Shown here one piece after another: positions 1 through 13,035 of a stretch of DNA of 13,035 nt. Within the stretch, counting starts at the first letter, position 1; every line of letters begins with the position of its first letter. Below the pieces are notes generated by a model that saw only the letters and a program-made list of their open reading frames with translations, searched no databases and had not been told where the DNA came from. Made by a program: the position numbers and the translations under genes. The stretch is from a virus (Duplodnaviria > Heunggongvirae > Uroviricota > Caudoviricetes): positions 1-13,035 of the IMG/VR virus record IMGVR_UViG_2690316210_000016, one strand, 5' to 3'.

Positions 1-1230
1 ATGAGCAGAGCACTTAACAAACTGAGCGATACACAGCTGAGGAAAATCAACGGCACACCCGCCCAAAAAACAGCTTTTCTTAATGACGGTGGAAACCTGA
101 GCGTCAGGCATTCAACCAGCGGCCTTTTAACCTGGTATTTCACCTACAGGGCCGGAACGGGAAGGGGAGCACGACCGGAACGGATTAAGCTGGGAAATTA
201 TCCTGATCTGAGTCTGAAAGCTGCCAGGGAAAAAGCGGCACAGTGTCGCGCTTGGCTTGCTGAGGGGAAAAATCCACGTCATGAGATGAATTACACCGTA
301 CAGAAAGCGTTAAAGCCCGTAACGGTTGGCGATGCGCTTACCTACTGGCTTGAGTCTTACGTAAAGGAAAACCGCGTGGATTATGCCGCCCTGAAAAAGC
401 GCCTTAATAATCACGTAATACAGCACATTGGTGCTATGCCGCTGGATAAATGCGAGCTACGGCACTGGCTGGCCTGTTTTGACCAGGTGGCAAAGCGAAC
501 GCCTGTTACTGCCGGATTCTTGCTACAGACGTGCAAACAGGCGCTTAAGTTCTGCCGGAGGCGGCGCTATGCAATCAGCAACGTTCTTGATGATATGAGT
601 GTGGCGGACGTTGGGAAAAAACCGGATATAAGCGAGCGTGTCTTAAGCACCAAAGAACTTGGCGAATTATTGCAGGCACTGGACAAAAAAATATTTTCCC
701 CTTACTACGTCGCACTAATCCGCCTCCTGATTGTTTTCGGATGCCGGACGGTAGAACTGAGGTTATCGGAGATCAGCGAGTGGGATTTTACCGAAATGCT
801 CTGGACCGTGCCGAAAGAACACAGCAAAACGAAGGTGGCAATATTCCGGCCCATACCGGAAGCAATACTGCCGTTCGTCACGCAGCTGGTGGAGCAGAAC
901 AGGCACACGGGCTTATTGCTGGGGGAAGTGAAACAGGAAACAAGCGTGTCGCAGTACGGCAGATTAGCGCACAGGAGGCTAAAACACCCTCACTGGTCAC
1001 TGCATGACATCCGGCGCACCTTTACAACGATGCTGAACGATTTAGGCGTGGATCCTCACGTCGTGGAGCAGCTTACAGGTCATCAGATGCCAGGGATGCA
1101 ACGAGTCTATAACCATTCCCGTTATCTGGATGCGAAACGTGACGCGCTGGATATGTGGACGGAGCGGTTAGGGATACTGGCGGGAACACATGAAAACGTA
1201 ACCACATTGCCAATAGCCAGAGAAATATAA
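1..1230 (+). CDS. int: Tyrosine site-specific integrase (phage integrase family), 409 aa
   Basis: Full ORF from ATG at position 1. C-terminal region has the catalytic-domain pattern (HDIRRTF...GHQMPGMQRVYNHSRY, i.e. His/Arg box and a tyrosine near the end). N-terminal part resembles the arm-binding domain of P4-type integrases. Family assignment is from memory, no search run. Confidence 0.88.
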   Translation: MSRALNKLSDTQLRKINGTPAQKTAFLNDGGNLSVRHSTSGLLTWYFTYRAGTGRGARPERIKLGNYPDLSLKAAREKAAQCRAWLAEGKNPRHEMNYTVQKALKPVTVGDALTYWLESYVKENRVDYAALKKRLNNHVIQHIGAMPLDKCELRHWLACFDQVAKRTPVTAGFLLQTCKQALKFCRRRRYAISNVLDDMSVADVGKKPDISERVLSTKELGELLQALDKKIFSPYYVALIRLLIVFGCRTVELRLSEISEWDFTEMLWTVPKEHSKTKVAIFRPIPEAILPFVTQLVEQNRHTGLLLGEVKQETSVSQYGRLAHRRLKHPHWSLHDIRRTFTTMLNDLGVDPHVVEQLTGHQMPGMQRVYNHSRYLDAKRDALDMWTERLGILAGTHENVTTLPIAREI

Positions 1231-1260
1231 TTTTTTTTGCGATTTTTCAGGATGCGGACA

Positions 1261-1315
1261 ACGTGAAACAACGAGACACAACGACGAACAACAAGGAACA
1301 AAATGGAACAACGGG
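1261..1315. repeat. Five tandem ~10-11 bp GAACAAC-type repeats between int and alpA
   Basis: Direct reading: tgaaacaacga / gacacaacgac / gaacaacaag / gaacaaaatg / gaacaacggg, at roughly one helical turn spacing. A second CA-rich repetitive stretch (gacacaatcc gacacaaccc aacccaataatccaccc) lies at about 1513..1565. Confidence 0.4.
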
Positions 1316-1595
1316 TTAAAAATCAGCCATCGTAATAACCATTTGATTTTTATAGGTGTACTGTTTTTTTATACACTGGCGAATCACTCTTAAAAATATG
1401 TAAAAAAGGCGTAAAAGTAAAATTTTATGCCTTTGCATCATAATGAATTAAAAGAGTTTTTATTCTCATTCCCCCTGCTTCTGTAAAACGACCGCCGCCA
1501 GTGTTTGCCATTCCACAAACACCCTGACACAATCCGACACAACCCAACCCAATAATCCACCCAATGACTCTTTAAGAAACAACAAAGGGGGAATT

Positions 1596-1784
1596 GTGTT
1601 AAGCACAGATCGCTTTATACGTGAAAAAGAATGTCAGCAACTTACAGGCCTGAGCCGCTCATGTCGGTACCGCCTGGAAAAAGCCGGACAATTCCCATCA
1701 CGGCGTAAGCTGGGCGGTCGTTCCGTTGGCTGGTCTTTATCCGAAGTTCTGGCATGGAAGGACAGCTGCGAGGCAGTTCACTAA
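1596..1784 (+). CDS. alpA: AlpA-family small DNA-binding regulator / excisionase-like protein, 62 aa
   Basis: GTG start at 1596 preceded by aaaggggg. Translation (FIREKECQQLTGLSRSCRYRLEKAGQFPSRRKLGGRSVGWSLSEVLAWK) matches the AlpA/CP4-57 regulator HTH pattern. Its position just after int is typical of satellites and integrative elements. Confidence 0.8.
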   Translation: MLSTDRFIREKECQQLTGLSRSCRYRLEKAGQFPSRRKLGGRSVGWSLSEVLAWKDSCEAVH

Positions 1785-1836
1785 TCAGGCTGGCGGCACA
1801 CAGCCGCCACCCATCCACTAATACAGAGATCTAACC

Positions 1837-3261
1837 ATGAATACTGGATATTCTCCCGAACAAGGGCGGGGCTTCGTTCGTCCTGAAAAACAGAATCTGC
1901 AAAATTTTGCCGAAATTATTCCGGTTATTTCCGGCCTTACTGGCGGGAGTGAAACCAATATTGTTAACGCCAGAGCGTTGCAGATGTTTGATGATAAAAA
2001 GGGAGTAAATTTAACTTACACCCCTGACGGCAATCAGAATATGAGCATTATCTCTGAGTCAGGTTTCTACAAACTAATAAAAACAAAAAGCGCCCCGTTG
2101 CCGGAGCGCCTTTGTGAACAATTAACCTACTGCGCAAAAAATGAATCTGAGCAGTGGGATTATATCAACCATGTGGAGAAGCGCCACAATTGCCGAATAA
2201 CGGGCAAAACAAAGGCCACCCGCTACGGTGGCCCCTCGACACAAGCTACACGTTATCCCCAACGCATGAGCATTGCCAACAATGCCACATTTGCGGCTGG
2301 TGGGCAATGCAATCAGTCTGGTTCAGTTCGTTGCCATACCTGCAATGAGCGCTTTTCCCTGTACTCTTTAAGGAATTGCTCAAGGGCAAAAGCACATGGC
2401 GCGAATCTTTCTGATTCATGCTCTATCTTTCTGCGCCGTCTTTTCCGTGCCGGTGATAATGTTTTGGTCAATTCTTTATCGGTCATTGTGTTGTCCTGCA
2501 TAGCAATGCGCCGTAATACCTTACACCACGGCGCTGATGGTGATTACTCTGGTTCTTTGGTCTTGCGGCGCTGGAGTTCTTCACGTGCGACAGTGACGAG
2601 CTGCCCGATCTCCTCGGCGGCTTTGATTCCGAGTTTTTCCACCTGCGCCAGTGCATCGAGCGAAGAAACCAGGGGATTTTCTCCACTTCCTTCTGCCTGG
2701 CGCCGGGCGATCTCACCGCGTACAGCCGTAACTATAAAATTCGCTTTAGTTTCCCCTGGCTGTAGGGATGCCTCAATGCCACTCACTACTTCATGTGGAA
2801 ATCTGGCATTCAGTTGCTGTGACTTATTGTTAACAGAACTCCTGGACATGTTTGCACCTCCCATTAATAACGGGATGCAGTGTAATACAAAAGTGAATAC
2901 CAAAAAAGACTTGAAATGGTATTCACCTAAATGTAATGTGAATACCACAAGTGCTGATACATGCAATTCAGCAATTGAAACGACGAAGCCCCGCACTGTT
3001 GGAGCAGTAACGGGGCTTCTAACCACCAACGATAACGAGAGTATCGAGGTAGCTATGAGAAATCATACCACACACCCGCAAGGGCGGGACTCGCACAACC
3101 TGAATAAATACATCTGGCGTTTTATCGCCCTGAGCACTGCACAACCGCGCGTGATTACCATTGAGGCCACCAGCGAACAGGAAGCACGCCAGCAATCCCC
3201 GGCTGGCTGCGTGATGGTATTCGCTGCCCGTATTCGTCAGGAGGTGTGCCATGTGCAATAA
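1837..3261 (+). CDS. Questionable 474-codon ORF; only the first ~90 codons look protein-like (antirepressor / Bro-N-like segment)
   Basis: Residues ~50-85 (MFDDKKGVNLTYTPDGNQNMSIISESGFYKLIKTKSA) resemble the C-terminal half of a Bro-N/antirepressor domain, but the N-terminal half does not match well. From about nt 2150 onward the translation is Cys/Ser/Arg/Thr-rich and looks non-coding. The ORF also runs antisense through a well-supported minus-strand gene (2544..2849) and through a repeat-rich regulatory region. Probably a gene remnant plus a chance open frame. Confidence 0.25.
   Translation: MNTGYSPEQGRGFVRPEKQNLQNFAEIIPVISGLTGGSETNIVNARALQMFDDKKGVNLTYTPDGNQNMSIISESGFYKLIKTKSAPLPERLCEQLTYCAKNESEQWDYINHVEKRHNCRITGKTKATRYGGPSTQATRYPQRMSIANNATFAAGGQCNQSGSVRCHTCNERFSLYSLRNCSRAKAHGANLSDSCSIFLRRLFRAGDNVLVNSLSVIVLSCIAMRRNTLHHGADGDYSGSLVLRRWSSSRATVTSCPISSAALIPSFSTCASASSEETRGFSPLPSAWRRAISPRTAVTIKFALVSPGCRDASMPLTTSCGNLAFSCCDLLLTELLDMFAPPINNGMQCNTKVNTKKDLKWYSPKCNVNTTSADTCNSAIETTKPRTVGAVTGLLTTNDNESIEVAMRNHTTHPQGRDSHNLNKYIWRFIALSTAQPRVITIEATSEQEARQQSPAGCVMVFAARIRQEVCHVQ
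2544..2849 (-). CDS. Hypothetical small protein (102 aa), possible island regulator
   Basis: Minus-strand ATG (complement of cat at 2847..2849) sits 6 nt after a strong Shine-Dalgarno (GGGAGGTG on the minus strand). The longer upstream extension in the ORF track (to 3029) is hydrophobic junk, so the internal start is preferred. It faces away from the replication operon across operator-like repeats. No family recognised. Confidence 0.45.
   Translation of the reverse strand: MSRSSVNNKSQQLNARFPHEVVSGIEASLQPGETKANFIVTAVRGEIARRQAEGSGENPLVSSLDALAQVEKLGIKAAEEIGQLVTVAREELQRRKTKEPE
2881..3019. promoter_or_regulatory. Operator-like repeats (GTGAATACC direct and inverted) and a 9-bp-stem hairpin in the divergent intergenic region
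   Basis: GTGAATACC at 2893..2901 and 2938..2946, its inverse GGTATTCAC at 2918..2926; TGTAAT at 2881 and 2932. Hairpin GAAGCCCCG (2985..2993) / CGGGGCTTC (3011..3019) with no downstream T-tract. Lies between the minus-strand gene and the plus-strand operon starting at 3251. Confidence 0.35.
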
Positions 3262-3475
3262 CACCCGTCCGGACGCAGCCGCCGAAGCCATCATAACGCT
3301 AATGCATGCGCTGATTGATATTTCTGTTATTGCTGACAGGGCGCATAAACACGCAGTCAGAGAATCAGAATGCATCTTCCATTATTTAGCATTTGTGCAG
3401 CTAAAAGCCGATCAGGCACTGGATAAGGCCGGAAAAATTATCATGGCTGATGTGCAGGAGGTGCACCATGCATAA
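3251..3475 (+). CDS. Hypothetical protein, 74 aa
   Basis: ATG at 3251 preceded by AGGAGG (caggaggtgtgccATG). Its stop overlaps the start of the next ORF (atgcataa), indicating translational coupling. Confidence 0.55.
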   Translation: MCNNTRPDAAAEAIITLMHALIDISVIADRAHKHAVRESECIFHYLAFVQLKADQALDKAGKIIMADVQEVHHA

Positions 3476-3833
3476 CCTGTCAATTTCTGACCTTAACAGC
3501 ATTCAGTTTGACGAGAAATTTACCGGGCAGTTGCTGGTCAATGTGGAGAACGGGCGCATAGTGCGTAATTATCACCTGCCGGATGGTGCAATTGCCGGAA
3601 GCGTTGAAGCATTGCTGGAACTGGCGGAACGTGCGCGACTGATTAAGCCGTCAACGAGCCATCACGATGATGATCTGCATTTTACCGGATGTATGGTGAG
3701 TCACTACGAAAACGGCGTCGAGGTATCCTGCGAACGGCTGCGTGATGATTGCTGTTTCGGCACACTGCCGGAATTTATCGAGTTGCTGACCAGTTGCGGT
3801 TATCAGGTCATTCAGGGGGGTAAACATGCGTGA
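3468..3833 (+). CDS. Hypothetical protein, 121 aa
   Basis: ATG at 3468 preceded by AGGAGG (caggaggtgcaccATG). The ORF-track start at 3450 would place the SD inside the coding sequence, so 3468 is preferred. No recognisable domain. Confidence 0.55.
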   Translation: MHNLSISDLNSIQFDEKFTGQLLVNVENGRIVRNYHLPDGAIAGSVEALLELAERARLIKPSTSHHDDDLHFTGCMVSHYENGVEVSCERLRDDCCFGTLPEFIELLTSCGYQVIQGGKHA

Positions 3834-4059
3834 TGATCGTTTTAATTCCCTGAAACAGGAATTTTCCGGCGTTCCTGATGATGCGGCTGATGCGCTTTCG
3901 TCAATGCCAGAACTTATTAGAGCGGCTTTTTTCTTACTTTCCACGAGAGAATATAAATCAACGGGGCTTGATGTACTGAATATCGCCGCCGATTATGCGG
4001 AATATGTGGCAGAGGCGCGTTACAGAAGAAAATTTCCTGAGGATGTAAGCCATGCGTGA
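3826..4059 (+). CDS. Hypothetical protein, 77 aa
   Basis: ATG at 3826 after a GGGGGG run; start overlaps the previous stop. Acidic small protein, no family recognised. Confidence 0.5.
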   Translation: MRDDRFNSLKQEFSGVPDDAADALSSMPELIRAAFFLLSTREYKSTGLDVLNIAADYAEYVAEARYRRKFPEDVSHA

Positions 4060-4285
4060 TATTTACCACGAAACAATAGACCGCGCATTTCTTGCACTTT
4101 CTCACAGTGAAAACATGCTGGAAATATTGCGCATATGGCTTGAAACACTTGGCGACAATGAACGCGACAAACAAAAATCAAGAATTGCCACGGCATTAAT
4201 AACGCTTCTTGAGCCTGTAATAATGGAACTGCAAGAAATAGATCTATTGCACGACAGATATAAAGAACAGCACACCGGAGAATAA
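4052..4285 (+). CDS. Hypothetical protein, 77 aa
   Basis: ATG at 4052 after GAGGA; overlaps the previous stop. No family recognised. Confidence 0.5.
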   Translation: MRDIYHETIDRAFLALSHSENMLEILRIWLETLGDNERDKQKSRIATALITLLEPVIMELQEIDLLHDRYKEQHTGE

Positions 4286-4290
4286 AAATA

Positions 4291-4590
4291 ATGAAACTTA
4301 AATATTCTGGCTTAACTGCCAGTGGCAACACTCACCCTAAATTTACGCGCGGTGATATTTACCGCGACCAGTACGGCGGCACGGTAATGATTAAGGGCGT
4401 GGAAGAACGGCGTGTAACCTACCGCCGTGAAGGTTACGAATATGATTGCGTGATGCCTGTTTATCAGTTCCGGCGTGATTTTTCTCTGGTGCAGACCGCG
4501 CCGCATAACGTGCCCACCAGCAACGCCAGGGCACGGGCAAACATCCAGAAGCTGAAAACCATGATTAACGGATTCAGGGGTAAAAAATGA
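4291..4590 (+). CDS. Hypothetical protein, 99 aa
   Basis: ATG at 4291 after GGAGA; its stop overlaps the primase start (ATGA). No family recognised. Confidence 0.5.
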   Translation: MKLKYSGLTASGNTHPKFTRGDIYRDQYGGTVMIKGVEERRVTYRREGYEYDCVMPVYQFRRDFSLVQTAPHNVPTSNARARANIQKLKTMINGFRGKK

Positions 4591-6341
4591 AACTGGCACC
4601 GAACGTAAAACAGCAGTCACGCGGCATAAAACACAAAGGAACAGAAGTCATTATTTTTGCGGGTAGTGATGCCTGGGCACACGCGAAACAATGGCAGGAA
4701 CATGATGCGCGTATGGCCGGAGATAATGAGCCTCCTGTGTGGCTTGGGGAGCAGCAGTTATCAGAACTGGATAAGCTGCAAATTGTGCCGGAAGGCAGAA
4801 AATCCGTGCGCATATTCAGGGCCGGATATCTTGCGCCAGTAATGATAAAGGCGATTGGCCAGAAGCTGGCGGCGGCAGGCGTACAGGATGCAAATTTTTA
4901 CCCTGATGGTATGCACGGTCAGAAGGTGGAGAACTGGCGCGAATATCTGGCCCGTGAGCGCCAGAATCTTTCTGATGGTCTGGTCATTGAGCTTCCGGTA
5001 AAGCAAAAGGCGCAACTTTCGCAGATGGCGGACAGTGAGCGCGCGCAGCTGCTTGCCGATCGCTTTGATGGCGTTTGCGTACATCCTGAAAGTGAAATCG
5101 TTCACGTATGGCGCGGCGGGGTATGGTGTCCGGTCAGCACAATGGAACTTAGCCGCGAAATGGTGGCGATCTATTCAGAGCACAGGGCCACTTTCAGCAA
5201 GCGCGTAATCAATAACGCCGTGGAAGCGTTAAAAGTTATTGCCGAACCAATGGGCGAGCCGTCCGGCGATTTGCTGCCGTTCGCCAATGGTGCGCTTGAC
5301 CTGAAAACGGGGGAATTTTCCCCGCACACGCCGGAGAACTGGATCACCACGCACAACGGCATTGAGTACACGCCACCAGCACCCGGGGAGAACATCCGCG
5401 ATAACGCGCCAAACTTTCATAAATGGCTTGAGCACGCAGCCGGAAAAGACCCGCGCAAGATGATGCGTATATGTGCCGCGCTGTACATGATTATGGCGAA
5501 CCGGTACGACTGGCAGATGTTTATTGAGGCCACCGGAGACGGCGGGAGCGGTAAAAGTACATTCACACACATAGCCAGCCTTCTGGCAGGGAAACAAAAC
5601 ACGGTAAGCGCTGAAATGACATCGCTTGATGATGCTGGTGGGCGTGCGCAGGTTGTCGAGAGTCGTCTTATCGTCCTGGCTGACCAGCCGAAATATACAG
5701 GCGAAGGAACGGGCATCAAGAAAATCACGGGCGGCGACCCCGTGGAAATTAACCCGAAATATGAAAAGCGTTTCACGGCGGTAATCAGGGCGGTGGTGCT
5801 GGCGACCAACAACAACCCGATGATATTCACCGAACGGGCCGGAGGTGTGGCACGTCGTCGCGTGATTTTCCGTTTCGACAATATCGTCAGTGAGGCCGAA
5901 AAAGACAGGGAGCTACCGGAAAAGATTGCGGCTGAAATCCCTGTGATTATCCGCCGATTGCTGGCGAACTTTTCCGACCCTGAAAAGGCACGGGCTTTAC
6001 TCATTGAACAGCGTGACGGTGATGAAGCACTGGCGATAAAGCAGCAAACGGATCCGGTTATTGAGTTTTGCCAGTTCCTGAATTTTCTGGAGGAAGCGCG
6101 CGGCCTGATGATGGGTGGCGGTGGCGATTCAGTGAAGTACACGACCAGGAACAGCCTTTACCGCGTCTATCTGGCGTTTATGGCATACGCAGGCAGGAGC
6201 AAACCGCTAAACGTAAATGACTTTGGCAAGGCTATGAAGCCTGCCGCAAAAGTTTACGGACATGAATATATTACGCGGAAAGTTAAGGGGGTAACGCAGA
6301 CTAACGCAATAACAACAGACGAGTGCGACGCGTTTTTATAA
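4587..6341 (+). CDS. Replication initiator: P4-type primase C-terminal / SF3 helicase (D5-like NTPase) protein, 584 aa
   Basis: Walker A P-loop EATGDGGSGKSTF (nt ~5534..5557) followed by a Walker-B-like hydrophobic stretch ending in D (RLIVLADQ). Overall resemblance to the P4-alpha / PICI pri-rep NTPase domain, and an iteron array lies directly downstream. Family from memory, no search run. Confidence 0.82.
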   Translation: MKLAPNVKQQSRGIKHKGTEVIIFAGSDAWAHAKQWQEHDARMAGDNEPPVWLGEQQLSELDKLQIVPEGRKSVRIFRAGYLAPVMIKAIGQKLAAAGVQDANFYPDGMHGQKVENWREYLARERQNLSDGLVIELPVKQKAQLSQMADSERAQLLADRFDGVCVHPESEIVHVWRGGVWCPVSTMELSREMVAIYSEHRATFSKRVINNAVEALKVIAEPMGEPSGDLLPFANGALDLKTGEFSPHTPENWITTHNGIEYTPPAPGENIRDNAPNFHKWLEHAAGKDPRKMMRICAALYMIMANRYDWQMFIEATGDGGSGKSTFTHIASLLAGKQNTVSAEMTSLDDAGGRAQVVESRLIVLADQPKYTGEGTGIKKITGGDPVEINPKYEKRFTAVIRAVVLATNNNPMIFTERAGGVARRRVIFRFDNIVSEAEKDRELPEKIAAEIPVIIRRLLANFSDPEKARALLIEQRDGDEALAIKQQTDPVIEFCQFLNFLEEARGLMMGGGGDSVKYTTRNSLYRVYLAFMAYAGRSKPLNVNDFGKAMKPAAKVYGHEYITRKVKGVTQTNAITTDECDAFL

Positions 6342-6356
6342 TTTTTTGTAATTGCT

Positions 6357-6580
6357 GTCTACCCTGTCTACCTGAGTAAAGAAAAATACATTTAATTCAG
6401 TGCATTAAGTTAGGTAGATAGCCTTTTTTTACTGTCTACCCACTATCTACCCTCTCTACCTGATTTTACCTGAATCAGACAGGGAGGTAGACACGGGGTA
6501 GATAGTGGATAAAAGCACTCTACCCCGCTGAAATCCGCGCCATTACTGGCATGAGGGCCACTAAGGTAGATAAGGTAGAC
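6357..6580. repeat. Iteron array, putative replication origin
   Basis: About 11 copies of the heptamer GTCTACC / GGTAGA(C/T) within 225 bp. Mostly GTCTACC-type in the left cluster (6357, 6366, 6434, 6445, 6454) and GGTAGAC/T-type in the right cluster (6486, 6497, 6565, 6574), with one GGTAGAT at 6413 and one CTCTACC at 6518. An AT-rich stretch (6374..6412) lies inside the left cluster. Confidence 0.7.
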
Positions 6581-6629
6581 AAGGGGAGGCACAACTCAAA
6601 ACTTTTTAAACGAGGGGGTAAAAATAAAT

Positions 6630-6908
6630 ATGCACACTTCAGGGAAATTTAATAAATCACTCAAAAAACGCAGAGACAGAACAGAACCGAAATATCGCGC
6701 GTTAGACATGACAGAGCACGCTTTAAAGGTGGCAATCAGAACGATAGACCGACACGTAGGGGAAGGATACGCGAAGGAACATCCCGACCTGATAAGCGCA
6801 TTCATGACCACAGCAGCGGCAAACTTTGCCACGCTGACAGAACGGGAGATTGCCGAAGCGGAACAGGTAACAACCATCAACGTTAAAACCGGAGAGGTGG
6901 AATCATGA
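6630..6908 (+). CDS. Hypothetical protein, 92 aa
   Basis: ATG at 6630 preceded by GAGGGGG; its stop overlaps the start of the SSB-like gene (ATGA). No family recognised. Confidence 0.5.
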   Translation: MHTSGKFNKSLKKRRDRTEPKYRALDMTEHALKVAIRTIDRHVGEGYAKEHPDLISAFMTTAAANFATLTEREIAEAEQVTTINVKTGEVES

Positions 6909-7315
6909 CAGCACAGATAGCAGCTTACGGGCGGCTGGTGGACGACCCGCAGGTAAAACAGACCAGCAAGGGCACACCAATGACGCTGGCACGTATGGCG
7001 GTATCGTTGCCATGTAGTCAGGCGCAGGATGGGCAGGCTACGTTATGGCTATCGGTGATGGCATTTGGTAAGCAGGCCGACTTCCTGGCTAAACATCAAA
7101 AAGGCGACGTTGCCAGCGTATCCGGCACGATGCAGGTCAGCCAGTGGACCGGACAGAACGGGGAAACGCGGCAGGGTTATCAGGTTATTGCAGACAGCGT
7201 AATCAGTGCCCGTGCGGCACGTCCTGGCGGGAACAGACGCAAAACCACAGGCACACAGGGTAATCAGCCACCAGCGGGAGGCGATGACCCTTACGGTGAT
7301 GATATTCCGTTCTGA
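6905..7315 (+). CDS. ssb: Single-stranded DNA-binding protein homolog (short, 136 aa)
   Basis: OB-fold-like N-terminal region, a Gly/Pro/Gln-rich linker, and a C-terminal acidic tip GDDIPF that corresponds to the conserved DDDIPF tail of bacterial SSB. Confidence 0.78.
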   Translation: MTAQIAAYGRLVDDPQVKQTSKGTPMTLARMAVSLPCSQAQDGQATLWLSVMAFGKQADFLAKHQKGDVASVSGTMQVSQWTGQNGETRQGYQVIADSVISARAARPGGNRRKTTGTQGNQPPAGGDDPYGDDIPF

Positions 7316-7325
7316 GGGGGTGAGG

Positions 7326-7574
7326 ATGGTACATGACCGCATAGCGGAGGAACTCGAGGCAAAAGGCTTTTACCGGAGGGCGGCGGCACGATGGGGTGAA
7401 GTCATGCAACTGGTGGAGACAGACAAGGAACGGCATCAGGTTACGATGCGACGGCTGGAATGTTCCAGGAAGGCACAGAGGCCACCGGAGCCGCCAACGG
7501 AGAACTATGCAGACCTGAGAAATGCAGTAAATCGCACTTACGCAGACATGGGGCTGAGCAAATTAGCAGAGTAG
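7326..7574 (+). CDS. PerC/Pch-family-like small transcriptional activator, 82 aa
   Basis: ATG at 7326 after GGGGG, in frame with the ORF-track entry 7206..7574, whose upstream part overlaps ssb and is probably not translated. The motif IAEELEAKGFYRRAAARWGEVM resembles the conserved N-terminal motif of PerC/Pch regulators as I recall it. Confidence 0.5.
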   Translation: MVHDRIAEELEAKGFYRRAAARWGEVMQLVETDKERHQVTMRRLECSRKAQRPPEPPTENYADLRNAVNRTYADMGLSKLAE

Positions 7575-7597
7575 GAATACCAGAACCACACCACACA

Positions 7598-7619
7598 GCC
7601 GGAGCAATCCGGCTTTTTT
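7598..7619 (+). terminator. Rho-independent terminator
   Basis: GCCGGA-GCAA-TCCGGC hairpin followed by TTTTTT. Confidence 0.6.
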
Positions 7620-7631
7620 GCGCCCAAAAAA

Positions 7632-7668
7632 AGCCCGATAAGGTCAGAGGTGGCTTATCGGGCTTTTG
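7632..7668. terminator. Second hairpin terminator, probably bidirectional
   Basis: Perfect 11-bp stem AGCCCGATAAG / CTTATCGGGCT with an 11-nt loop, flanked by an A-run upstream and TTTT downstream. Confidence 0.6.
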
Positions 7669-7744
7669 CATATGAGGTTTTTTGGTGCACTGACACACAT
7701 GATCGGGATAATCATTTCATAATTTGCAACGCAACTCAATATCA

Positions 7745-7797
7745 TTGCACAAAATGCAATCATGATTATAATCATAACTGGATGAACATCCAGTTAT
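7745..7797 (+). promoter_or_regulatory. Sigma70-type promoter of the capsid module overlapped by two perfect palindromic operators
   Basis: TTGCAC (7745..7750), 16-bp spacer, TATAAT (7767..7772). Perfect 14-bp palindrome ATGATTATAATCAT (7762..7775) overlaps the -10. Perfect 24-bp palindrome ATAACTGGATG-AA-CATCCAGTTAT (7774..7797) covers the predicted transcription start. Confidence 0.55.
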
Positions 7798-7828
7798 GAT
7801 TTTTTAAGTCAAAGAGGAATTTCTTACT

Positions 7829-8035
7829 ATGGCTGAAGAGAAAAAAGGCGGTGTTTCGGTGTACATAAGCCCCGACATCGTGAAGGCGCTCAAGGAACGC
7901 CACCAGCAGAACGTAAAAGCAGGCATTGCGGCAGGACTTGATCCGCTGGCGATGGTTGAGCCGTCAACAGGCTGGCAGGTACGCGCCTATTTACGCGCGG
8001 CGCTGGGTATGAATCAGGTTCACGGGGGTGAATAA
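7829..8035 (+). CDS. Hypothetical protein, 68 aa, first gene of the capsid module
   Basis: ATG at 7829 after AAGAGGA; stop overlaps the capsid gene start (TAATG). No family recognised. Confidence 0.55.
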   Translation: MAEEKKGGVSVYISPDIVKALKERHQQNVKAGIAAGLDPLAMVEPSTGWQVRAYLRAALGMNQVHGGE

Positions 8036-9090
8036 TGACAGTAAAAGCAATGGCACTTAACACTAACCAGCTTTTTGCGTACCTGAATCGCGGGGATATT
8101 GCGGAATTTAAATTCAGTCCGCTGTTTACCACGCTGTTTTTCCCGAACGTGGCGACATTCAGCACGCAAAACATCATGCTGGATACCCTGGACATTGAAG
8201 AAGTCACCATGTCGGCGTTTTGTTCGCCTATGGTGGGTAGCCAGGTTCAGCGCGATAAAGGGTACGAAACCAGCACGATTAAACCTGGCTACATGAAGCC
8301 AAAGCACGAAATCGATCCAACGAAAACCATCATGCGCATGGCTGGAGAAGATCCGGCACAGCTTAACGACCCTACCTATCGCCGTATGCGCCTGATTACT
8401 GGCAATATGCGCCGCCAGATAAACGCCATAAAAGCGCGCGTGGAATGGCTGGCGGTAAATGCGGTAACGACCGGAAAAAACATCATTGAAGGCGAAGGCA
8501 TAGAGCGCTATGAAATCGACTGGAAGATACCGGAAAAAAACATCATAGAGCAGGCCGACGGGAAAAAATGGTCAGAGCAGGACAAAGAAACCCACGATCC
8601 AATCTATGATATCGAACTATACGCCGATCAGGCTGGTTGCCCCGCAAACGTCATGATTATGGGCGCTGAGGTATGGCGAACGTTACGCAGCTTTAAAAAA
8701 TTCCGTGAGCTGTACGATCTTTCCCGTGGTTCAGAGTCCGCCGCAGAGCTGGCCTGTAAAAACCTGGGCGAAGTGGTGAGCTTTAAAGGCTATCTGGGCG
8801 ATATTGCCCTTATCGTCTATTCCGGCAAATACACTGACAGCGACGGCACAGAAAAATATTTCCTTGAGCCTGATTTGCTTGTCCTGGGCAACACCAACAA
8901 TAAAGGGCTGGTGGCCTATGGTGCGATTATGGATCAGGACGCAGTAAGAACGGGCGCAACGCAAAACATGTTTTACCCGAAAAACTGGATTGAGGACGGC
9001 GATCCGGCGATTGAGTACGTGCAGACGCACAGCGCACCGCAGCCGGTTCCGGCAGATATTCGCAAATTTGTTACCGTCAAAATTGGTTAA
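8035..9090 (+). CDS. Major capsid protein, lambda gpE-like (HK97 fold family), 351 aa
   Basis: Multiple blocks match lambda gpE as recalled: KPGYMKPKHEIDP vs TPGYVKPKHEVNP; DPTYRRMRLITGNMR vs DPAYRRRRIIMQNMR; VSFKGYLGDIALIVYSGKY vs VSYKGMYGDVAIVVYSGQY; LLVLGNTNNKGLVAYGAIMDQDA vs TMVLGNTQARGLRTYGCIQDADA; YPKNWIEDGDPAIEY vs YPKNWVTTGDPAREF. Length is similar to gpE (341 aa). Confidence 0.9.
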   Translation: MTVKAMALNTNQLFAYLNRGDIAEFKFSPLFTTLFFPNVATFSTQNIMLDTLDIEEVTMSAFCSPMVGSQVQRDKGYETSTIKPGYMKPKHEIDPTKTIMRMAGEDPAQLNDPTYRRMRLITGNMRRQINAIKARVEWLAVNAVTTGKNIIEGEGIERYEIDWKIPEKNIIEQADGKKWSEQDKETHDPIYDIELYADQAGCPANVMIMGAEVWRTLRSFKKFRELYDLSRGSESAAELACKNLGEVVSFKGYLGDIALIVYSGKYTDSDGTEKYFLEPDLLVLGNTNNKGLVAYGAIMDQDAVRTGATQNMFYPKNWIEDGDPAIEYVQTHSAPQPVPADIRKFVTVKIG

Positions 9091-9101
9091 CGGGGGATTC
9101 T

Positions 9102-9437
9102 ATGGACACTCCATACATTGAGTTATTTGCAGGCAGTCAGCAGGTCGCCACGACGCTGGTACATTTTGCCGCTGATGCTGGCGTTATTCAGGAATTTACC
9201 CCGCTGATGCTGGCGGACAATGGCGAGTTTAAGCCGTGGGATGGTAAGGAATCTGGCAAGGCTGTTTATCTGACCTCGTACCCTGTGGACACGTCAAAGC
9301 AGAAATCAGCACAGTGTTACAAGACGGGGATATTCAATATTGCCGCCGTTAACTGGCCTGAGAGCGTCGACACCGATGCGAAAAAATGCGCCGCCTTTGC
9401 GGGTTCCGGCGTATCCGTTCAGCCGCTGGCCCGATAA
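9102..9437 (+). CDS. Head decoration protein, lambda gpD-like, 111 aa
   Basis: Matches lambda gpD (110 aa) as recalled: TPLMLADNGEFKPWDG vs TPLMLDTSSRKLVAWDG; CYKTGIFNIAAVNWPESVDTDAKKCAAFAGSGVSV vs [35 protein letters not shown]. Preceded by GGGGGAT. Confidence 0.85.
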   Translation: MDTPYIELFAGSQQVATTLVHFAADAGVIQEFTPLMLADNGEFKPWDGKESGKAVYLTSYPVDTSKQKSAQCYKTGIFNIAAVNWPESVDTDAKKCAAFAGSGVSVQPLAR

Positions 9438-9449
9438 GCAGGGGGAACG

Positions 9450-9863
9450 ATGGCAACGAATGAAAGCATCATGACGCTACCGCTGGCGAGTAAATTTAAA
9501 GCCGAAGCGCGGGCAATGGCTGACAGAGGTTTATCAACCTATGAGGCCGTATATCAACTAAACAAACTGGAAGAGCAGGACAAGCCGCGCGCTGATGCGA
9601 TTATGGCGCTTCATGAGCATAAAGACTATCAGCCGCTGTTGCGTGCAATGGCAAACGTGCCTTGTATCGATGTTGGTACGGCTAAAAGCATCCTTAGCAT
9701 GACCATAGAGCAGGAACGTCCGAAGGTTGCGCCGGAACTTACCGCAGCCTTTGAAAACTTTATGGACATGCACAGCCCGCAAGCCGTATCAGCTGGCATG
9801 GCATACGATGGCAGAAACCAGGGCGATGACGGCGACATCGATCGCATACTGAAAACCATCTGA
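9450..9863 (+). CDS. Hypothetical protein, 137 aa, last gene of the capsid module
   Basis: ATG at 9450 after AGCAGGGGGAAC. No similarity to lambda FI/FII that I can recognise. Confidence 0.55.
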   Translation: MATNESIMTLPLASKFKAEARAMADRGLSTYEAVYQLNKLEEQDKPRADAIMALHEHKDYQPLLRAMANVPCIDVGTAKSILSMTIEQERPKVAPELTAAFENFMDMHSPQAVSAGMAYDGRNQGDDGDIDRILKTI

Positions 9864-9869
9864 GACAAG

Positions 9870-9891
9870 GCCGGAGAAATCCGGCTTTTTT
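9870..9891 (+). terminator. Rho-independent terminator
   Basis: GCCGGA-GAAA-TCCGGC hairpin followed by TTTTTT; nearly identical to the terminator at 7598..7619. Confidence 0.6.
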
Positions 9892-9892
9892 A

Positions 9893-9957
9893 CGGGTCCT
9901 TCCTGGAATTATGGCCCGTTACGGGGCGGCGACCTCGCGGGTTTTCGCTATTTATGA
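9893..9957 (+). other. cos site copy A: lambda-type cosQ-cosN junction with only the first ~22 bp of cosB
   Basis: Contains GTTACG-GGGCGGCGACCT-CGCGGGTTTTCGCTATTTATGA, matching the lambda end junction (12-nt cohesive end GGGCGGCGACCT at 9924..9935, recalled from the lambda genome). The preceding CGGGTCCTTCCTGG resembles the lambda right end ACGGGTCCTTTCCGG. No R-type repeats follow before the Nu1-like gene. Confidence 0.8.
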
Positions 9958-10024
9958 CGTTTTCCCGTGAAGGTGACACCACCACCACTTGATTAATATT
10001 TAACCATGCAGTTAAGGTAACATT

Positions 10025-10459
10025 ATGATTGATAAAGCTTGTTTTGTAAGTCAGCAGGAAATAGCTGAACATTTCAAGGTTAACAGAACCACTATTCGCG
10101 CATGGACCAAACAGGGGATGCCGTATCTTAATGCGGATCGCGGAAAGTCTGGCGGTTATCACATCGGGCATACATTGCTTTGGTCTTCAGGTAAAAGCCG
10201 TCTTGAGGCCATCAGATATCACGTAGAAACCAGTGCGCTGGAAAAAATTATGTTTGCCAGGCTGCTTTCATCTGAGCGTGACGAGTACTCCAGTGAAGAA
10301 ACAGAACATCGATTTGATGAAGGTTTGCAGATTTACGGCTATTCACCGGAAGATGTGAGCAAGGCACGAAATAAAATGGCTGGCTTTCTGGCTGGGTGGC
10401 GTCATGCCGTAAGCGTTCGCCGTGCCAGCATGGAGCAATCAGCCGATACAGAACAGTAA
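10025..10459 (+). CDS. Small terminase subunit homolog (lambda gpNu1-like N-terminal winged-HTH domain), 144 aa
   Basis: VSQQEIAEHFKVNRTTIRAWTKQGMPYLNADRGKSGG aligns with lambda Nu1 VNKKQLADIFGASIRTIQNWQEQGMPVLRGGGKGN. Shorter than Nu1 (181 aa), and the C-terminal half is unrelated. No large terminase subunit gene is present in the window. Confidence 0.72.
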   Translation: MIDKACFVSQQEIAEHFKVNRTTIRAWTKQGMPYLNADRGKSGGYHIGHTLLWSSGKSRLEAIRYHVETSALEKIMFARLLSSERDEYSSEETEHRFDEGLQIYGYSPEDVSKARNKMAGFLAGWRHAVSVRRASMEQSADTEQ

Positions 10460-10527
10460 AGCCGATAACTTGTTAATCACTCGCAGCAATGCATGTGATT
10501 TGTGCACACTTTCGGTTAACTGGTTCG

Positions 10528-10705
10528 ATGTCCGGTTTTAGTGTCTGTTTTTTGCGCATGTCCGGTTCATGGAAAGCATGTTTTTATATTTTTCATATGG
10601 TTAACTTGCAGAGAAACCGGACATGGATCCCGAAAAATTTTCATAAATAGTGAAAACGCGCGAGGTCGCCGCCCCGTAACGGGCCATAATTCCAGGAAGG
10701 ACCCG
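10528..10705 (-). other. cos site copy B (inverted): cosQ-cosN plus a complete cosB-like region with three R-like repeats and an AT-rich tract
   Basis: Read on the minus strand: cosQ-like at 10675..10705, cosN (AGGTCGCCGCCC on plus) at 10663..10674, then TATTTATGAAAATTTTCGGG, matching lambda TATTTATGAAAATTTTCCGG. R-like decamers ATGTCCGGTT at 10528..10537 and 10558..10567 and the inverse AACCGGACAT at 10615..10624, with an AT-rich tract at 10570..10612. This mirrors the lambda cosN-R3-I1-R2-R1 layout but with a different repeat sequence. Confidence 0.75.
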
Positions 10706-10738
10706 ACGACACCAGACTATCAGAACGATGGGGGCACA

Positions 10739-11020
10739 ATGACAGAAGCCGAAATACTGCGATTAATCCGCCGCGTTGCCGGAATCAGCCAGCAGGCCGA
10801 CGAACAGACCACGCAGCCGGACAGCGTGACCGCCGAAAATTATGTTCGTGTGGTTGCTGAGATGATTCGCCGTAATGGTATCCAGCTTAATGATGTGGAT
10901 ATGCGCAACATACGGATCCGCGTTCTTGAAATGCTGGCCTACAATCGCCGCGTGGCACTGTATCGGGAAACGGAGAAAATTACGTACCACTGGAAGAAGC
11001 CGGAGCGGTTGCGGCGGTAA
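10739..11020 (+). CDS. Hypothetical protein, 94 aa, distal to cos
   Basis: Start chosen at ATG 10739 (GGGGG upstream). The ORF-track start at 10541 would translate through cos copy B. No family recognised. Confidence 0.45.
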   Translation: MTEAEILRLIRRVAGISQQADEQTTQPDSVTAENYVRVVAEMIRRNGIQLNDVDMRNIRIRVLEMLAYNRRVALYRETEKITYHWKKPERLRR

Positions 11021-11070
11021 CTGGTTGATATTTTCGAAATTCGCCAGCGGCGAACATCGGGGAAACCAGC

Positions 11071-11187
11071 CTAACCCGTTGATATTTTCGGGAACCTCAA
11101 ATTGAGGAGGTCGGAAACATAACCCGTCATATTCTGGATGCTGATAATTACCACGCAGCCCATTAAGGCCTAACCCGTTGATTCTTC
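11071..11187. repeat. Three direct repeats of TAACCCGT(T/C)(G/A)AT at ~48-bp spacing
   Basis: ctaacccgttgatattttcg (11071), cataacccgtcatattctgg (11119), cctaacccgttgattcttcc (11168); also ttgatattttcg at 11024. Confidence 0.4.
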
Positions 11188-11193
11188 CACAAT

Positions 11194-11356
11194 CCCCCAT
11201 TGGGGGAGGCTGGGCGGCCTGCTGTGGGCTTTTCCACCATTGGTGGAAAGGCGCACATCTGGATCATCATTACGGTGATCAAGGGTATGTAAAACCCACC
11301 AGCCTGATTGACATTTAACCGGAAAAAAGCCAGGTAGCCCCATTATGGGGATCCCC
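11194..11356. repeat. Cluster of GC-rich palindromes with a CCATTGG-type core
   Basis: CCCCCA-T-TGGGGG (11194..11206), TTTCCACCA-T-TGGTGGAAA (11231..11249), CCCCAT-T-ATGGGG (11338..11350) overlapping GGGGATCCCC (11347..11356). Confidence 0.4.
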
Positions 11357-11574
11357 ATATCGACATTAACGCCCCTCATGAATTGGCGCGCTTCCCCCTG
11401 GAAAGATGACCCGCCTGTATATTTCTTGTGTCTATTTGTTCCACGTTGTTTCATACAGTGCAACGATCGGTGTAGTTAATGGTGTAGTCAATTTGCGATT
11501 TTTAGCACTTTTTGCAGTGCAAATCATTTAATTAAATCAATGACTTGCCTTGATGTAGTGATAAAAGGACATAT

Positions 11575-13035
11575 TTATTCATCTTTCGGCGCAGAATGCT
11601 GGCGACCAAAAATCACCTCCATCCGCGCACCGCCCAGCATGCTCTCTCCGGCGACGATTTTACCCTCATATTGCTCGGTGATTTCGCGGGCTACCGCCAG
11701 CCCTACACCTTGCCCAGGGCGTAAAGTATCAACCCGTTGACCACGGTCGAAAATGACCTCTCGCTTGCTTAATGGAATACCGGGGCCATCATCCTCGACC
11801 ACAATATAGAGATGCTCGTCGGTTTGCCTTGCAGAAATTTCGACAAACTCGAGGCAATATTTACAGGCATTATCCAGCACGTTGCCCATCACCTCGACAA
11901 AATCGTTCTGCTCACCGACAAAGCTGATCTCTGGCGAAATATCGAGAGAGATATTGACCCCTTTGCGTTGATACACTTTGTTCAGCGCTGAGGTGAGATT
12001 GTCCAGCAGTGGGGCGACCGGATGCAGCTCGCGGCTGAGCAATGTCCCGCCGCGCATACTGGCACGATGCAGGTAGTAGCCAATTTGCTGTGAAATGCGG
12101 CTGATTTGCTCCAGCATTACCGGCTCAGCATCACTGACGCTCATCTTTTCACTACGCAGAGAACGCAGCGTACTTTGCAGCACCGCCAGTGGCGTTTTCA
12201 GACTATGGGTCAGGTCGGTGAGCGTCGTACGGTATTTGTCGTAACGTTCGCGTTCACTTTTTAACAATCGGTTCAGGTTTCGTACCAGACTGGTCAGTTC
12301 TCGCGTTGTGGCTGGATTGAGCAATTCGCGGTTATGTTCTTCCAGTTCGCGGACTTCTTTTGCCAGGGCTTCGATGGGGCGTAAACTCCACCAGGCGGCG
12401 ACCCACAGCAGCGGGATCACTAACAGCAGATTGGCTGAGAGCACATAGATAAACCAGCTCCAGACCATATAGGAACTTTTTAGCTCCACCGGAATGGTAT
12501 CCACCACCACAATGGTTAATTTTGGCATCCGCGATGTTGCCGGGTAGACGTTTACTGCCACCGAGTGGGTCATCTCCGCGTCGTCATCATCTTCCCGCAC
12601 TTCCTGCAACTGTTGCTGTATCGAATGATCTCCACTCAGCAAGAGGCTGGTATCGTTAACATCCGCTTCAATTTCATGAAAACCATTCGATTTCAGCCAG
12701 TCAGGCTGGATCATCTTCATCAGCCAGGGCACGTCACGTTGCGCCCATAAAAGCTGCCCGTTCTCATCATAAATTAGCGTCATGGTGGGGCTTTGCTTGT
12801 CGATATTTTCGGGTAACTCGACATGCAACTTATTGTTTTCCCACTTCGCAAGGGTATAGAACAGATTGCTCTCGCCACGTAACAGCCGAAACGTAGTTTT
12901 ATCGAAACTGACGCTATAACCGATCAGCGCGACCATTCCGTAGGCAAGCGAAAGCACCAGTACTACCGCAGCCGTTGCCAACAGAAAACGTACCCGCAGC
13001 GAGAGCGGGAAAAAAAGACGCAGTAATTTTTTCAT
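11575..13035 (-). CDS. phoQ: Sensor histidine kinase PhoQ, 486 aa, complete
   Basis: Translation matches E. coli PhoQ as recalled, including the periplasmic acidic patch EDDDDAE, the H-box HSLKTPL and the C-terminal ATP-binding domain. The start codon is the last three bases of the window. Confidence 0.93.

Follow-up and report, generated by a model that had tools for sequence, protein, structure and literature searches.

The window analysed here, i.e. the complete stretch of 13,035 nucleotides that forms positions 1 to 13,035 of the Caudoviricetes record IMGVR_UViG_2690316210_000016, can be recognized by its sequence as a variant of EcCICFT073, a phage-inducible chromosomal island (PICI) described before (Fillol-Salom 2018, 2019; PMC6092414, PMC6739421). 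The gene at 7326-7574 on the plus strand was confirmed as a genuine PerC-family small regulator, as judged from profile match and alignment, and it is the positional orthologue of pchE of Escherichia coli O157, which places it in Pch group 3. The three conserved N-terminal helices of its predicted model form a TPR-like (tetratricopeptide repeat-like) hairpin unit, akin to the domain of the ANR anti-activators, and not a helix-turn-helix (HTH) fold; this relationship is new here. We infer, by analogy, that the protein may modulate silencing complexes of the H-NS/StpA/Hha type, and possibly other regulators, through protein contacts and not activate the LEE (locus of enterocyte effacement), a reading to which we give about an even chance.

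Family membership and the relation to PchE

The open reading frame (ORF) was read from the sequence with exact boundaries, comprises 82 codons and a TAG stop, and is preceded by a purine-rich run:

7326-7574 (+): PerC-family (PchE-type) coding sequence, 82 amino acids, equal to CFT073 C_RS07000 / WP_000233305.1 (ORF, Pfam, identity, RefSeq)
7314-7325 (+): Shine-Dalgarno-like purine-rich run GAGGGGGTGAGG, ssb stop to ATG (sequence)

The same run is kept in Sakai Sp7, as seen in a nucleotide alignment. The ATG lies only 10 nucleotides past the stop codon of ssb (7313-7315), a gap that leaves no space for a dedicated promoter, and the two genes are presumably co-transcribed. A longer ORF with a GTG start (7206-7574), which overlaps ssb, finds no support: the homologues begin with M-V/I-H/R-D, in agreement with the start at 7326.

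An earlier note on this DNA had recognized a PerC/Pch-like motif in the N-terminus and had named a profile search as the check. That search bore it out, as Pfam PF06069 (PerC) matches with E=6.4e-36 at a score of 122.9 bits, the gathering threshold being 22.6 bits, over residues 1-78 of the protein and positions 1-77 of the 90 in the profile. The match to PHROG 994 (E=4.5e-39) points to the same family. Moreover, all of the residues that are invariant or nearly invariant in the N-terminal part of the family, according to column counts over an alignment of 68 diverse members, are found in the window protein (D4, A7, E8, L10, E11, K13, G14, Y16, R17, R18, A19, A20, R22, W23, V26, M27, R36, R43, C46 and R52). 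With its 82 residues, its all-helical model and its location on a PICI, the protein also has the general traits of the family, whose members are all-helical, count about 80-105 residues and are encoded by mobile elements. A sequence search of the PDB returned nothing below E=0.7, and hence there is no relative with a solved structure, and PADLOC reported no defence-system match for the protein or its neighbours, save a weak HTH match on Rpp.

The assignment as such was already known. The CFT073 protein WP_000233305.1 is 100% identical, so that C_RS07000 and the window gene show no difference at the protein level, and RefSeq names it "PerC family transcriptional regulator" in the records of CFT073 and 181.1. 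In addition, Fillol-Salom 2018 (PMC6092414) had drawn attention to PerC alleles among the PICIs of E. coli. Considering this annotation and the two papers dedicated to PchE, the assignment carries little weight as a discovery.

Identities were calculated against reference proteins taken from annotated records. For the proteins of O157 Sakai they amount to 82% for PchE (over 82 residues), 45% for PchA and 36% for PchD, and they are 48% for EcCIMP1_025 and 42% for PerC of enteropathogenic E. coli (EPEC). A neighbour-joining tree without bootstrap grouped the window protein into the clade of PchE, with PerC and PchA in the neighbouring clade and EcCIMP1_025 and PchD elsewhere. The positional orthology derives from the genomic context: pchE (ECs_1588) is located in Sakai Sp7 (= CP-933C / O-island 51 / EcCIEDL933), which occupies the same site between roxA and phoQ and has the same gene order as the window, namely pri, a hypothetical gene, ssb, pchE, the terminator and the packaging module. 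Compared as DNA, the two genes are about 95% identical over their first ~250 nucleotides, followed by a divergent patch of about 50 nucleotides, after which the identity returns at a terminator hairpin that is the same in both. PchE has 90 residues and ends in ...DEIWRNYPDS, whereas the window protein has 82 and ends in ...MGLSKLAE; and an HK97-type capsid-forming module follows pchE, whereas an Rpp-type module (capsid-E-like/gpD-like) is found in the window.

The better known relatives are more distant. EPEC PerC (pMAR2) and PchA/B/C of enterohaemorrhagic E. coli (EHEC) have the Pfam family and the N-terminal signature in common with the window protein but constitute a separate clade, and PchA carries a longer, basic C-terminal tail (104 residues). 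EcCIMP1_025, a PerC-family protein encoded by the satellite PICI EcCIMP1, belongs to another clade with an ANR-type second tryptophan (W38), and its gene is located near the cargo end of EcCIMP1 and not directly after ssb. In Sakai SpLE1 (L006, 17943-20146), pchD is found directly downstream of ibrA/ybdM (PAPS-reductase-like and ParB-like) and not of ssb, and thus the most divergent Pch protein differs in genomic setting from the copies in satellite cores.

The C-terminus deserves separate attention. An aromatic-Arg (F/W-R) motif, in forms like WRNY, FRLNGG and FRRY, is present there in 65-66 of the 68 aligned members (F/W in 65 and R in 65), a count that is slightly biased by the preference for full-length sequences in the alignment; the window allele, together with its nearest variants, makes up the only three without it. 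A TGG-to-TAG nonsense mutation within WRNY was considered as the origin of the short tail and rejected. The motif is missing as well from P0001 and P0010, two read-through variants whose sequence runs on as ...LSKLAE(K/Q)EYQN..., and therefore the tail represents a distinct 3' allele and not a fresh nonsense mutation. Of the 5,426 complete genomes of E. coli, 69 match through this 3' end, against 768 that have a related gene, and public assemblies contain the exact protein in 2,077 indexed blocks. Over codons 1-75 the ratio of non-synonymous to synonymous substitution rates (dN/dS) amounts to 0.17-0.28 in comparisons with three alleles of the PchE type, from which it follows that the gene is a coding sequence under selection. 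The 82-residue allele without the F/W-R motif, which is new here, is both widespread and under purifying selection. It is accompanied by an Rpp-type module in all eight contexts (8/8), and WRNY tails by HK97 or ClpP-capsid modules, albeit in a small sample; the most economical account of this co-occurrence is that tail and module are linked across a recombination junction.

Predicted fold and proposed mode of action

The AlphaFold2 model, made with the 68-sequence alignment, consists of helices only and has a predicted local distance difference test score (pLDDT) of 88.2. Helices are predicted at residues 5-13, 16-27 and 33-50, followed by a linker rich in proline and, at 61-74, a fourth helix, and a full-length PchE-type relative yields the identical layout with the same pLDDT of 88.2. 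Foldseek found no match to this model in the PDB at E<=0.001. The relation to the ANR (AraC negative regulator) family (Aar, Rnr, Cnr) is suggested by profile and spacing. The NCBIfam ANR model (NF033650) matches the window protein with 18.9 bits (E=9.8e-4), which is below the cut-off of 32, and it matches 52 of the 68 PerC-family members at E<=0.01, the best with E=1.9e-8. Of the ANR signature A10, E14, A22, W26, W43 and R47 (PMC4983702), counterparts are found with the right spacing in A7, E11, A19, W23 and R42 (plus C46). The second tryptophan corresponds to Q38 in the window protein and is W in 28 of the 68 members, and the loop between the helices is two residues shorter. The model of an ANR protein of an Aeromonas phage superimposes over 43 residues at 0.8 A, although the Foldseek match itself is weak (E 5.5). 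The two groups have in common a small three-helix domain and, in part, the signature residues at matching distances, and the window protein differs from the ANRs of ~63 residues by the additional linker and fourth helix and by the missing second tryptophan.

ANR proteins bind AraC-type activators and H-NS (PMC5570504, PMC4983702), and do so with no DNA binding of their own (PMC5570504). PchA activates only where silencing by H-NS/StpA/Hha operates, and displaces H-NS (PMC4764244). It is on account of these two precedents that an action on H-NS or regulator complexes is proposed. The PerC protein would then not bind an operator through a classical HTH, but would contact complexes of the H-NS/StpA/Hha type, and possibly other regulators, as PchA and the ANR protein Aar do. 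Its expression would shift promoters that are under the control of H-NS. Among these would be AT-rich promoters of the satellite or of its helper, and effects on the flagella and curli loci of the host would come as a side effect.

Position in satellites and alternative roles

The genomic position of the gene is highly constant. In eight distinct contexts of the 82-residue protein, SSB is always found upstream and the module of a 68-residue protein, the capsid-E-like and the gpD-like protein downstream; the replication module (D5_N primase, AAA_25 helicase or DUF927) and the integration site vary. Other alleles likewise close the replication module, and are followed by an Rpp-type, HK97 capsid-forming, ClpP-capsid fusion or Nu1-type module. 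The adjacency of SSB and PerC holds in nearly all contexts, the exceptions being the contig L023, in which no SSB was called, and the islands with P0097, in which a ProQ-domain gene lies in between. The position at the end of the replication module, following ssb whatever the packaging module, is new here. The family as a whole is small, with 340 clusters (50% identity) among 1.84 billion representatives, and is found in 378 plasmid records, in temperate phages and in virulent N4-like phages. Because of this spread and the constant position after ssb, the placement resembles that of a core gene and not of cargo, and we infer, weakly, that the mobile element is the main beneficiary.

Some islands have a second PerC paralogue. 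In a related type of E. coli satellite (L025-L029, 3480-4004 and 8051-8288) a ProQ/FinO-domain protein of 174 residues is located between SSB and PerC, and the second paralogue lies about 4 kb downstream, past a Phage_Nu1-type gene. In L018 (10366-12249) the module of ssb, PerC, capE and gpD adjoins lambda-like portal (Phage_portal_2) and protease (Peptidase_S49) genes, a layout that agrees with the helper-embedded PICI configuration (PMC10111431).

An extended form of the H-NS reading would hold for the entire family. PerC proteins, being TPR-like and ANR-related, might primarily be a core tool of mobile elements against xenogeneic silencing that loosens the H-NS-type silencing of incoming AT-rich DNA, with the effects on LEE, flagella and curli as collateral and with satellite tails (the 82-residue LSKLAE form versus forms of the WRNY type) matched to the packaging module that comes next. 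We regard this extension as rather unlikely. If such a factor indeed serves the element, the label "virulence regulator" would need revision for the family as a whole. T7 gp5.5, H-NST and Ler are antagonists of H-NS, and satellites and phages would then join them as systematic H-NS antagonists.

The function implied by the earlier note, that of a PerC/Pch-like activator which switches on virulence loci, is unsupported for this allele, given its place in the PchE clade, the 82% identity and the shared site and synteny. Activation of LEE1 (ler), or of an equivalent virulence master switch, would be in line with the clear PerC-family membership and with the 42-45% identity to EPEC PerC and PchA of the neighbouring clade. 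However, uropathogenic E. coli (UPEC) CFT073 is not known to have a LEE. Moreover, not every strain that carries the regulators of the island possesses LEE (Flockhart et al., PMC3378721). PerC and PchA/B/C activate LEE1/ler through relief of H-NS silencing (PMC4764244), and the PchE group does not (PMC6265319). The expression of ler/espA needs group 1 (PchA/B/C) and not group 2 (PchD) or group 3 (PchE) (PMC6265319, citing Iyoda 2004 and Porter 2005), and LEE1-lacZ fusions are reported, in a secondary citation of Porter 2005, to be unaffected by the PerC-like genes that EcCIEDL933 and EcCICFT073 carry (PMC11773190). An activator of LEE1 is therefore largely refuted, and we consider it most improbable.

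A role directed at the host may take another form, namely that of an accessory regulator ('moron') that reprogrammes surface and motility genes of the host as long as the island is uninduced, and has no part in the satellite cycle; such a role has been put forward for PchE, with flagella increased and curli, intimin and Lpf decreased. In fact, the positional orthologue PchE, with its 82% identity, activates flhDC/fliC upon overexpression (fliC about 20-fold) and increases motility, and represses csgD/csgA (curli), eae and lpfA1 (PMC7369912, PMC6265319). Its transcript has a low steady state in the uninduced situation and drops on SOS induction (PMC7369912, PMC6265319). In addition, EcCIMP1_025 represses LEE1, as measured with LEE1-lux in C. 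rodentium (PMC11773190), and RgdR (c1493), a regulator of LEE1 encoded by the same island, activates type III secretion in EHEC and has variants with reported effects on motility (PMC3378721). Nevertheless, deletion of pchE changed none of the tested genes two-fold and all strong phenotypes came from plasmid expression (PMC7369912). Moreover, the window gene resides in the conserved core, with the replication module on one side and the packaging module on the other, and not at the variable cargo end, homologues occur in virulent N4-like phages, which do not gain from virulence traits of the host, and the conserved C-terminal motif of PchE is missing in the window allele. A dedicated host regulator is in our view somewhat unlikely. 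The related suggestion of the earlier note, that the satellite could influence host gene expression, is a reasonable idea but not a novel one, since an effect of the island is already documented for a different gene, RgdR, and overexpression data have been published for PchE. In the founding EcCICFT073 papers (locus tags c1496-c1498; PMC6092414, PMC6739421) we found no mutant of the PerC gene, and its deletion in EcCICFT073 is apparently unreported.

The neighbourhood might also argue for an activator dedicated to the island's own packaging operon (68-residue protein/capsid-E-like/gpD-like/Rpp), which would bind the AT-rich palindromic region at about 7708-7801 in the manner of late activators such as P4 Delta or those of the Mor/C type. 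In every island type it is the gene directly upstream of the packaging module, the type of 3' allele tracks the downstream module, and the intergenic region combines 31-32% GC with several palindromes. On the other hand, a DNA-binding fold is not predicted, and the N-terminal domain is nearly identical from island to island even though their downstream promoter regions share nothing but the terminator. The pairing of alleles and modules is more simply explained by linkage at the recombination junction, and the decrease of the pchE transcript on SOS induction (PMC7369912) is at odds with such a function as well; we hold it to be improbable. The short tail, finally, could signal an attenuated or decaying allele, in which loss of the F/W-R end has inactivated the protein and the ORF is hitch-hiking. 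That so few aligned members lack the motif, that the Pfam match ends at profile position 77 of 90, that the 3' end is a minority among the complete genomes with a related gene, and that frameshifted relatives occur (L009) would all fit this idea. Against it, the exact sequence is found in the 2,077 assembly blocks with three replication modules and at several integration sites, and the low dN/dS covers the common 75 codons. The read-through variants point to a distinct tail, and the AlphaFold2 confidence is equal for the truncated form and the full-length relative. Decay is accordingly judged distinctly improbable. Modulation of H-NS-type complexes through protein contacts remains the reading that we prefer.

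Flanking DNA and gene map of the island

The PerC gene is the last of a unit of three genes, for which the following features were recorded:

6630-6908 (+): small hypothetical gene, phrog_1231, which opens the hyp-ssb-perC unit (PHROG match)
6905-7315 (+): ssb, the constant left neighbour of the PerC gene (Pfam SSB, 62.4 bits)
7597-7620 (+): intrinsic-terminator-like hairpin AGCCGGAGCAATCCGGCT with T run (terminator scan)
7629-7667 (no strand assigned): perfect hairpin with a 14-bp stem, AAAAGCCCGATAAG-N11-CTTATCGGGCTTTT, with runs of A and T on its flanks

The hairpin at 7597-7620 marks the end of the unit and is invariant 3' of the PerC gene in all island types examined, as follows from alignments of the Rpp-type and HK97-type islands. 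The hairpin at 7629-7667, which is confined to Rpp-type islands, is shaped like a bidirectional terminator. For pchE of O157, 5' ends of the transcript have been reported at 110-115 and 675-680 nucleotides upstream (PMC7369912). The longer transcript begins just upstream of ECs1586, the counterpart of the phrog_1231 gene. A promoter inferred from O157 is unconfirmed in the window, because no sigma-70-like site came up on the plus strand upstream of the unit when promoters were sought with a simple scan.

Sakai Sp7 contains the hairpin of 7597-7620, as ACAGCCGGAGnAATCCGGCTTTTT, twice (L007, 7045-7090 and ~7400-7440), past pchE and again past ECs_1589, as though it labelled a junction between modules or one of recombination. 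Upstream of the packaging operon of the window, the region 7700-7801 has 31-32% GC and contains the palindromes ATAATCAT/ATGATTAT and ATCATTGCA/TGCAATCAT, and at 7770-7801 a perfect 15-nucleotide inverted repeat is followed by a T run; the region could be an operator or a terminator.

The counterparts of the window on E. coli chromosomes lie between roxA and phoQ. Turkey isolate 181.1 covers 100% of it with an identity of 98.3%, and for CFT073, which differs in part of the early region, the values are 92% and 97.8%. The phage-satellite setting proposed by the earlier note is borne out by the identity as an EcCICFT073 variant and by the gene content. Like the Gram-negative PICIs of the EcCICFT073 type, which measure about 11 kb, the window has int, alpA, pri and Rpp genes, with the origin just 3' of pri, and no tail or lysis genes. 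The remaining features are:

1-1230: integrase (int)
1596-1784: AlpA (PHROG)
4291-4590 (+): RgdR, DUF4222 protein of 99 amino acids with an RGD tripeptide at residues 20-22 (c1493 in CFT073, ECs1581 in Sakai)
4587-6341: P4-type primase, pri (profile match)
about 6350-6600 (no strand assigned): replication origin, located after pri and before the hyp-ssb-perC unit, with GGTAGA(T/C)A / TCTACC iterons on either side of an AT-rich segment (alignment; GC down to 34%)
8035-9090 (+): lambda gpE-like major capsid gene, capsid-E-like, c1499 (Pfam Phage_cap_E, E=2e-52)
9102-9437 (+): gpD-like decoration gene, c1500
10025-10459 (+): Rpp homologue, HTH protein of 144 amino acids (RppC, PDB 6HLK/6HN7, E=5.3e-31)

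At the position of the origin, Sakai Sp7 has a different iteron set that is GCGGGTTAT-like. The Rpp homologue confirms that the packaging module is of the Rpp type, RppC being the protein that redirects the TerS of the helper to the satellite cos site. Published deletions of c1499 and c1500 reportedly had no phenotype, and the satellite is said to be packaged in phage-sized capsids. Between the decoration and Rpp genes, an ORF of 137 amino acids at 9450-9863 (+), phrog_1999, shows a weak match (E=5e-9) to positions 495-567 of the 583 in a head-maturation-protease PHROG and may be a scaffold-like remnant.

In the early region an open frame of 474 amino acids without family match is found at 1837-3261 (+). 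RefSeq has short Icd-like genes here on one strand and genes of the YlcI/YnfO family on the other, and a further frame is located at 2544-3029 (-). This region coincides with the segment in which the window departs from CFT073.
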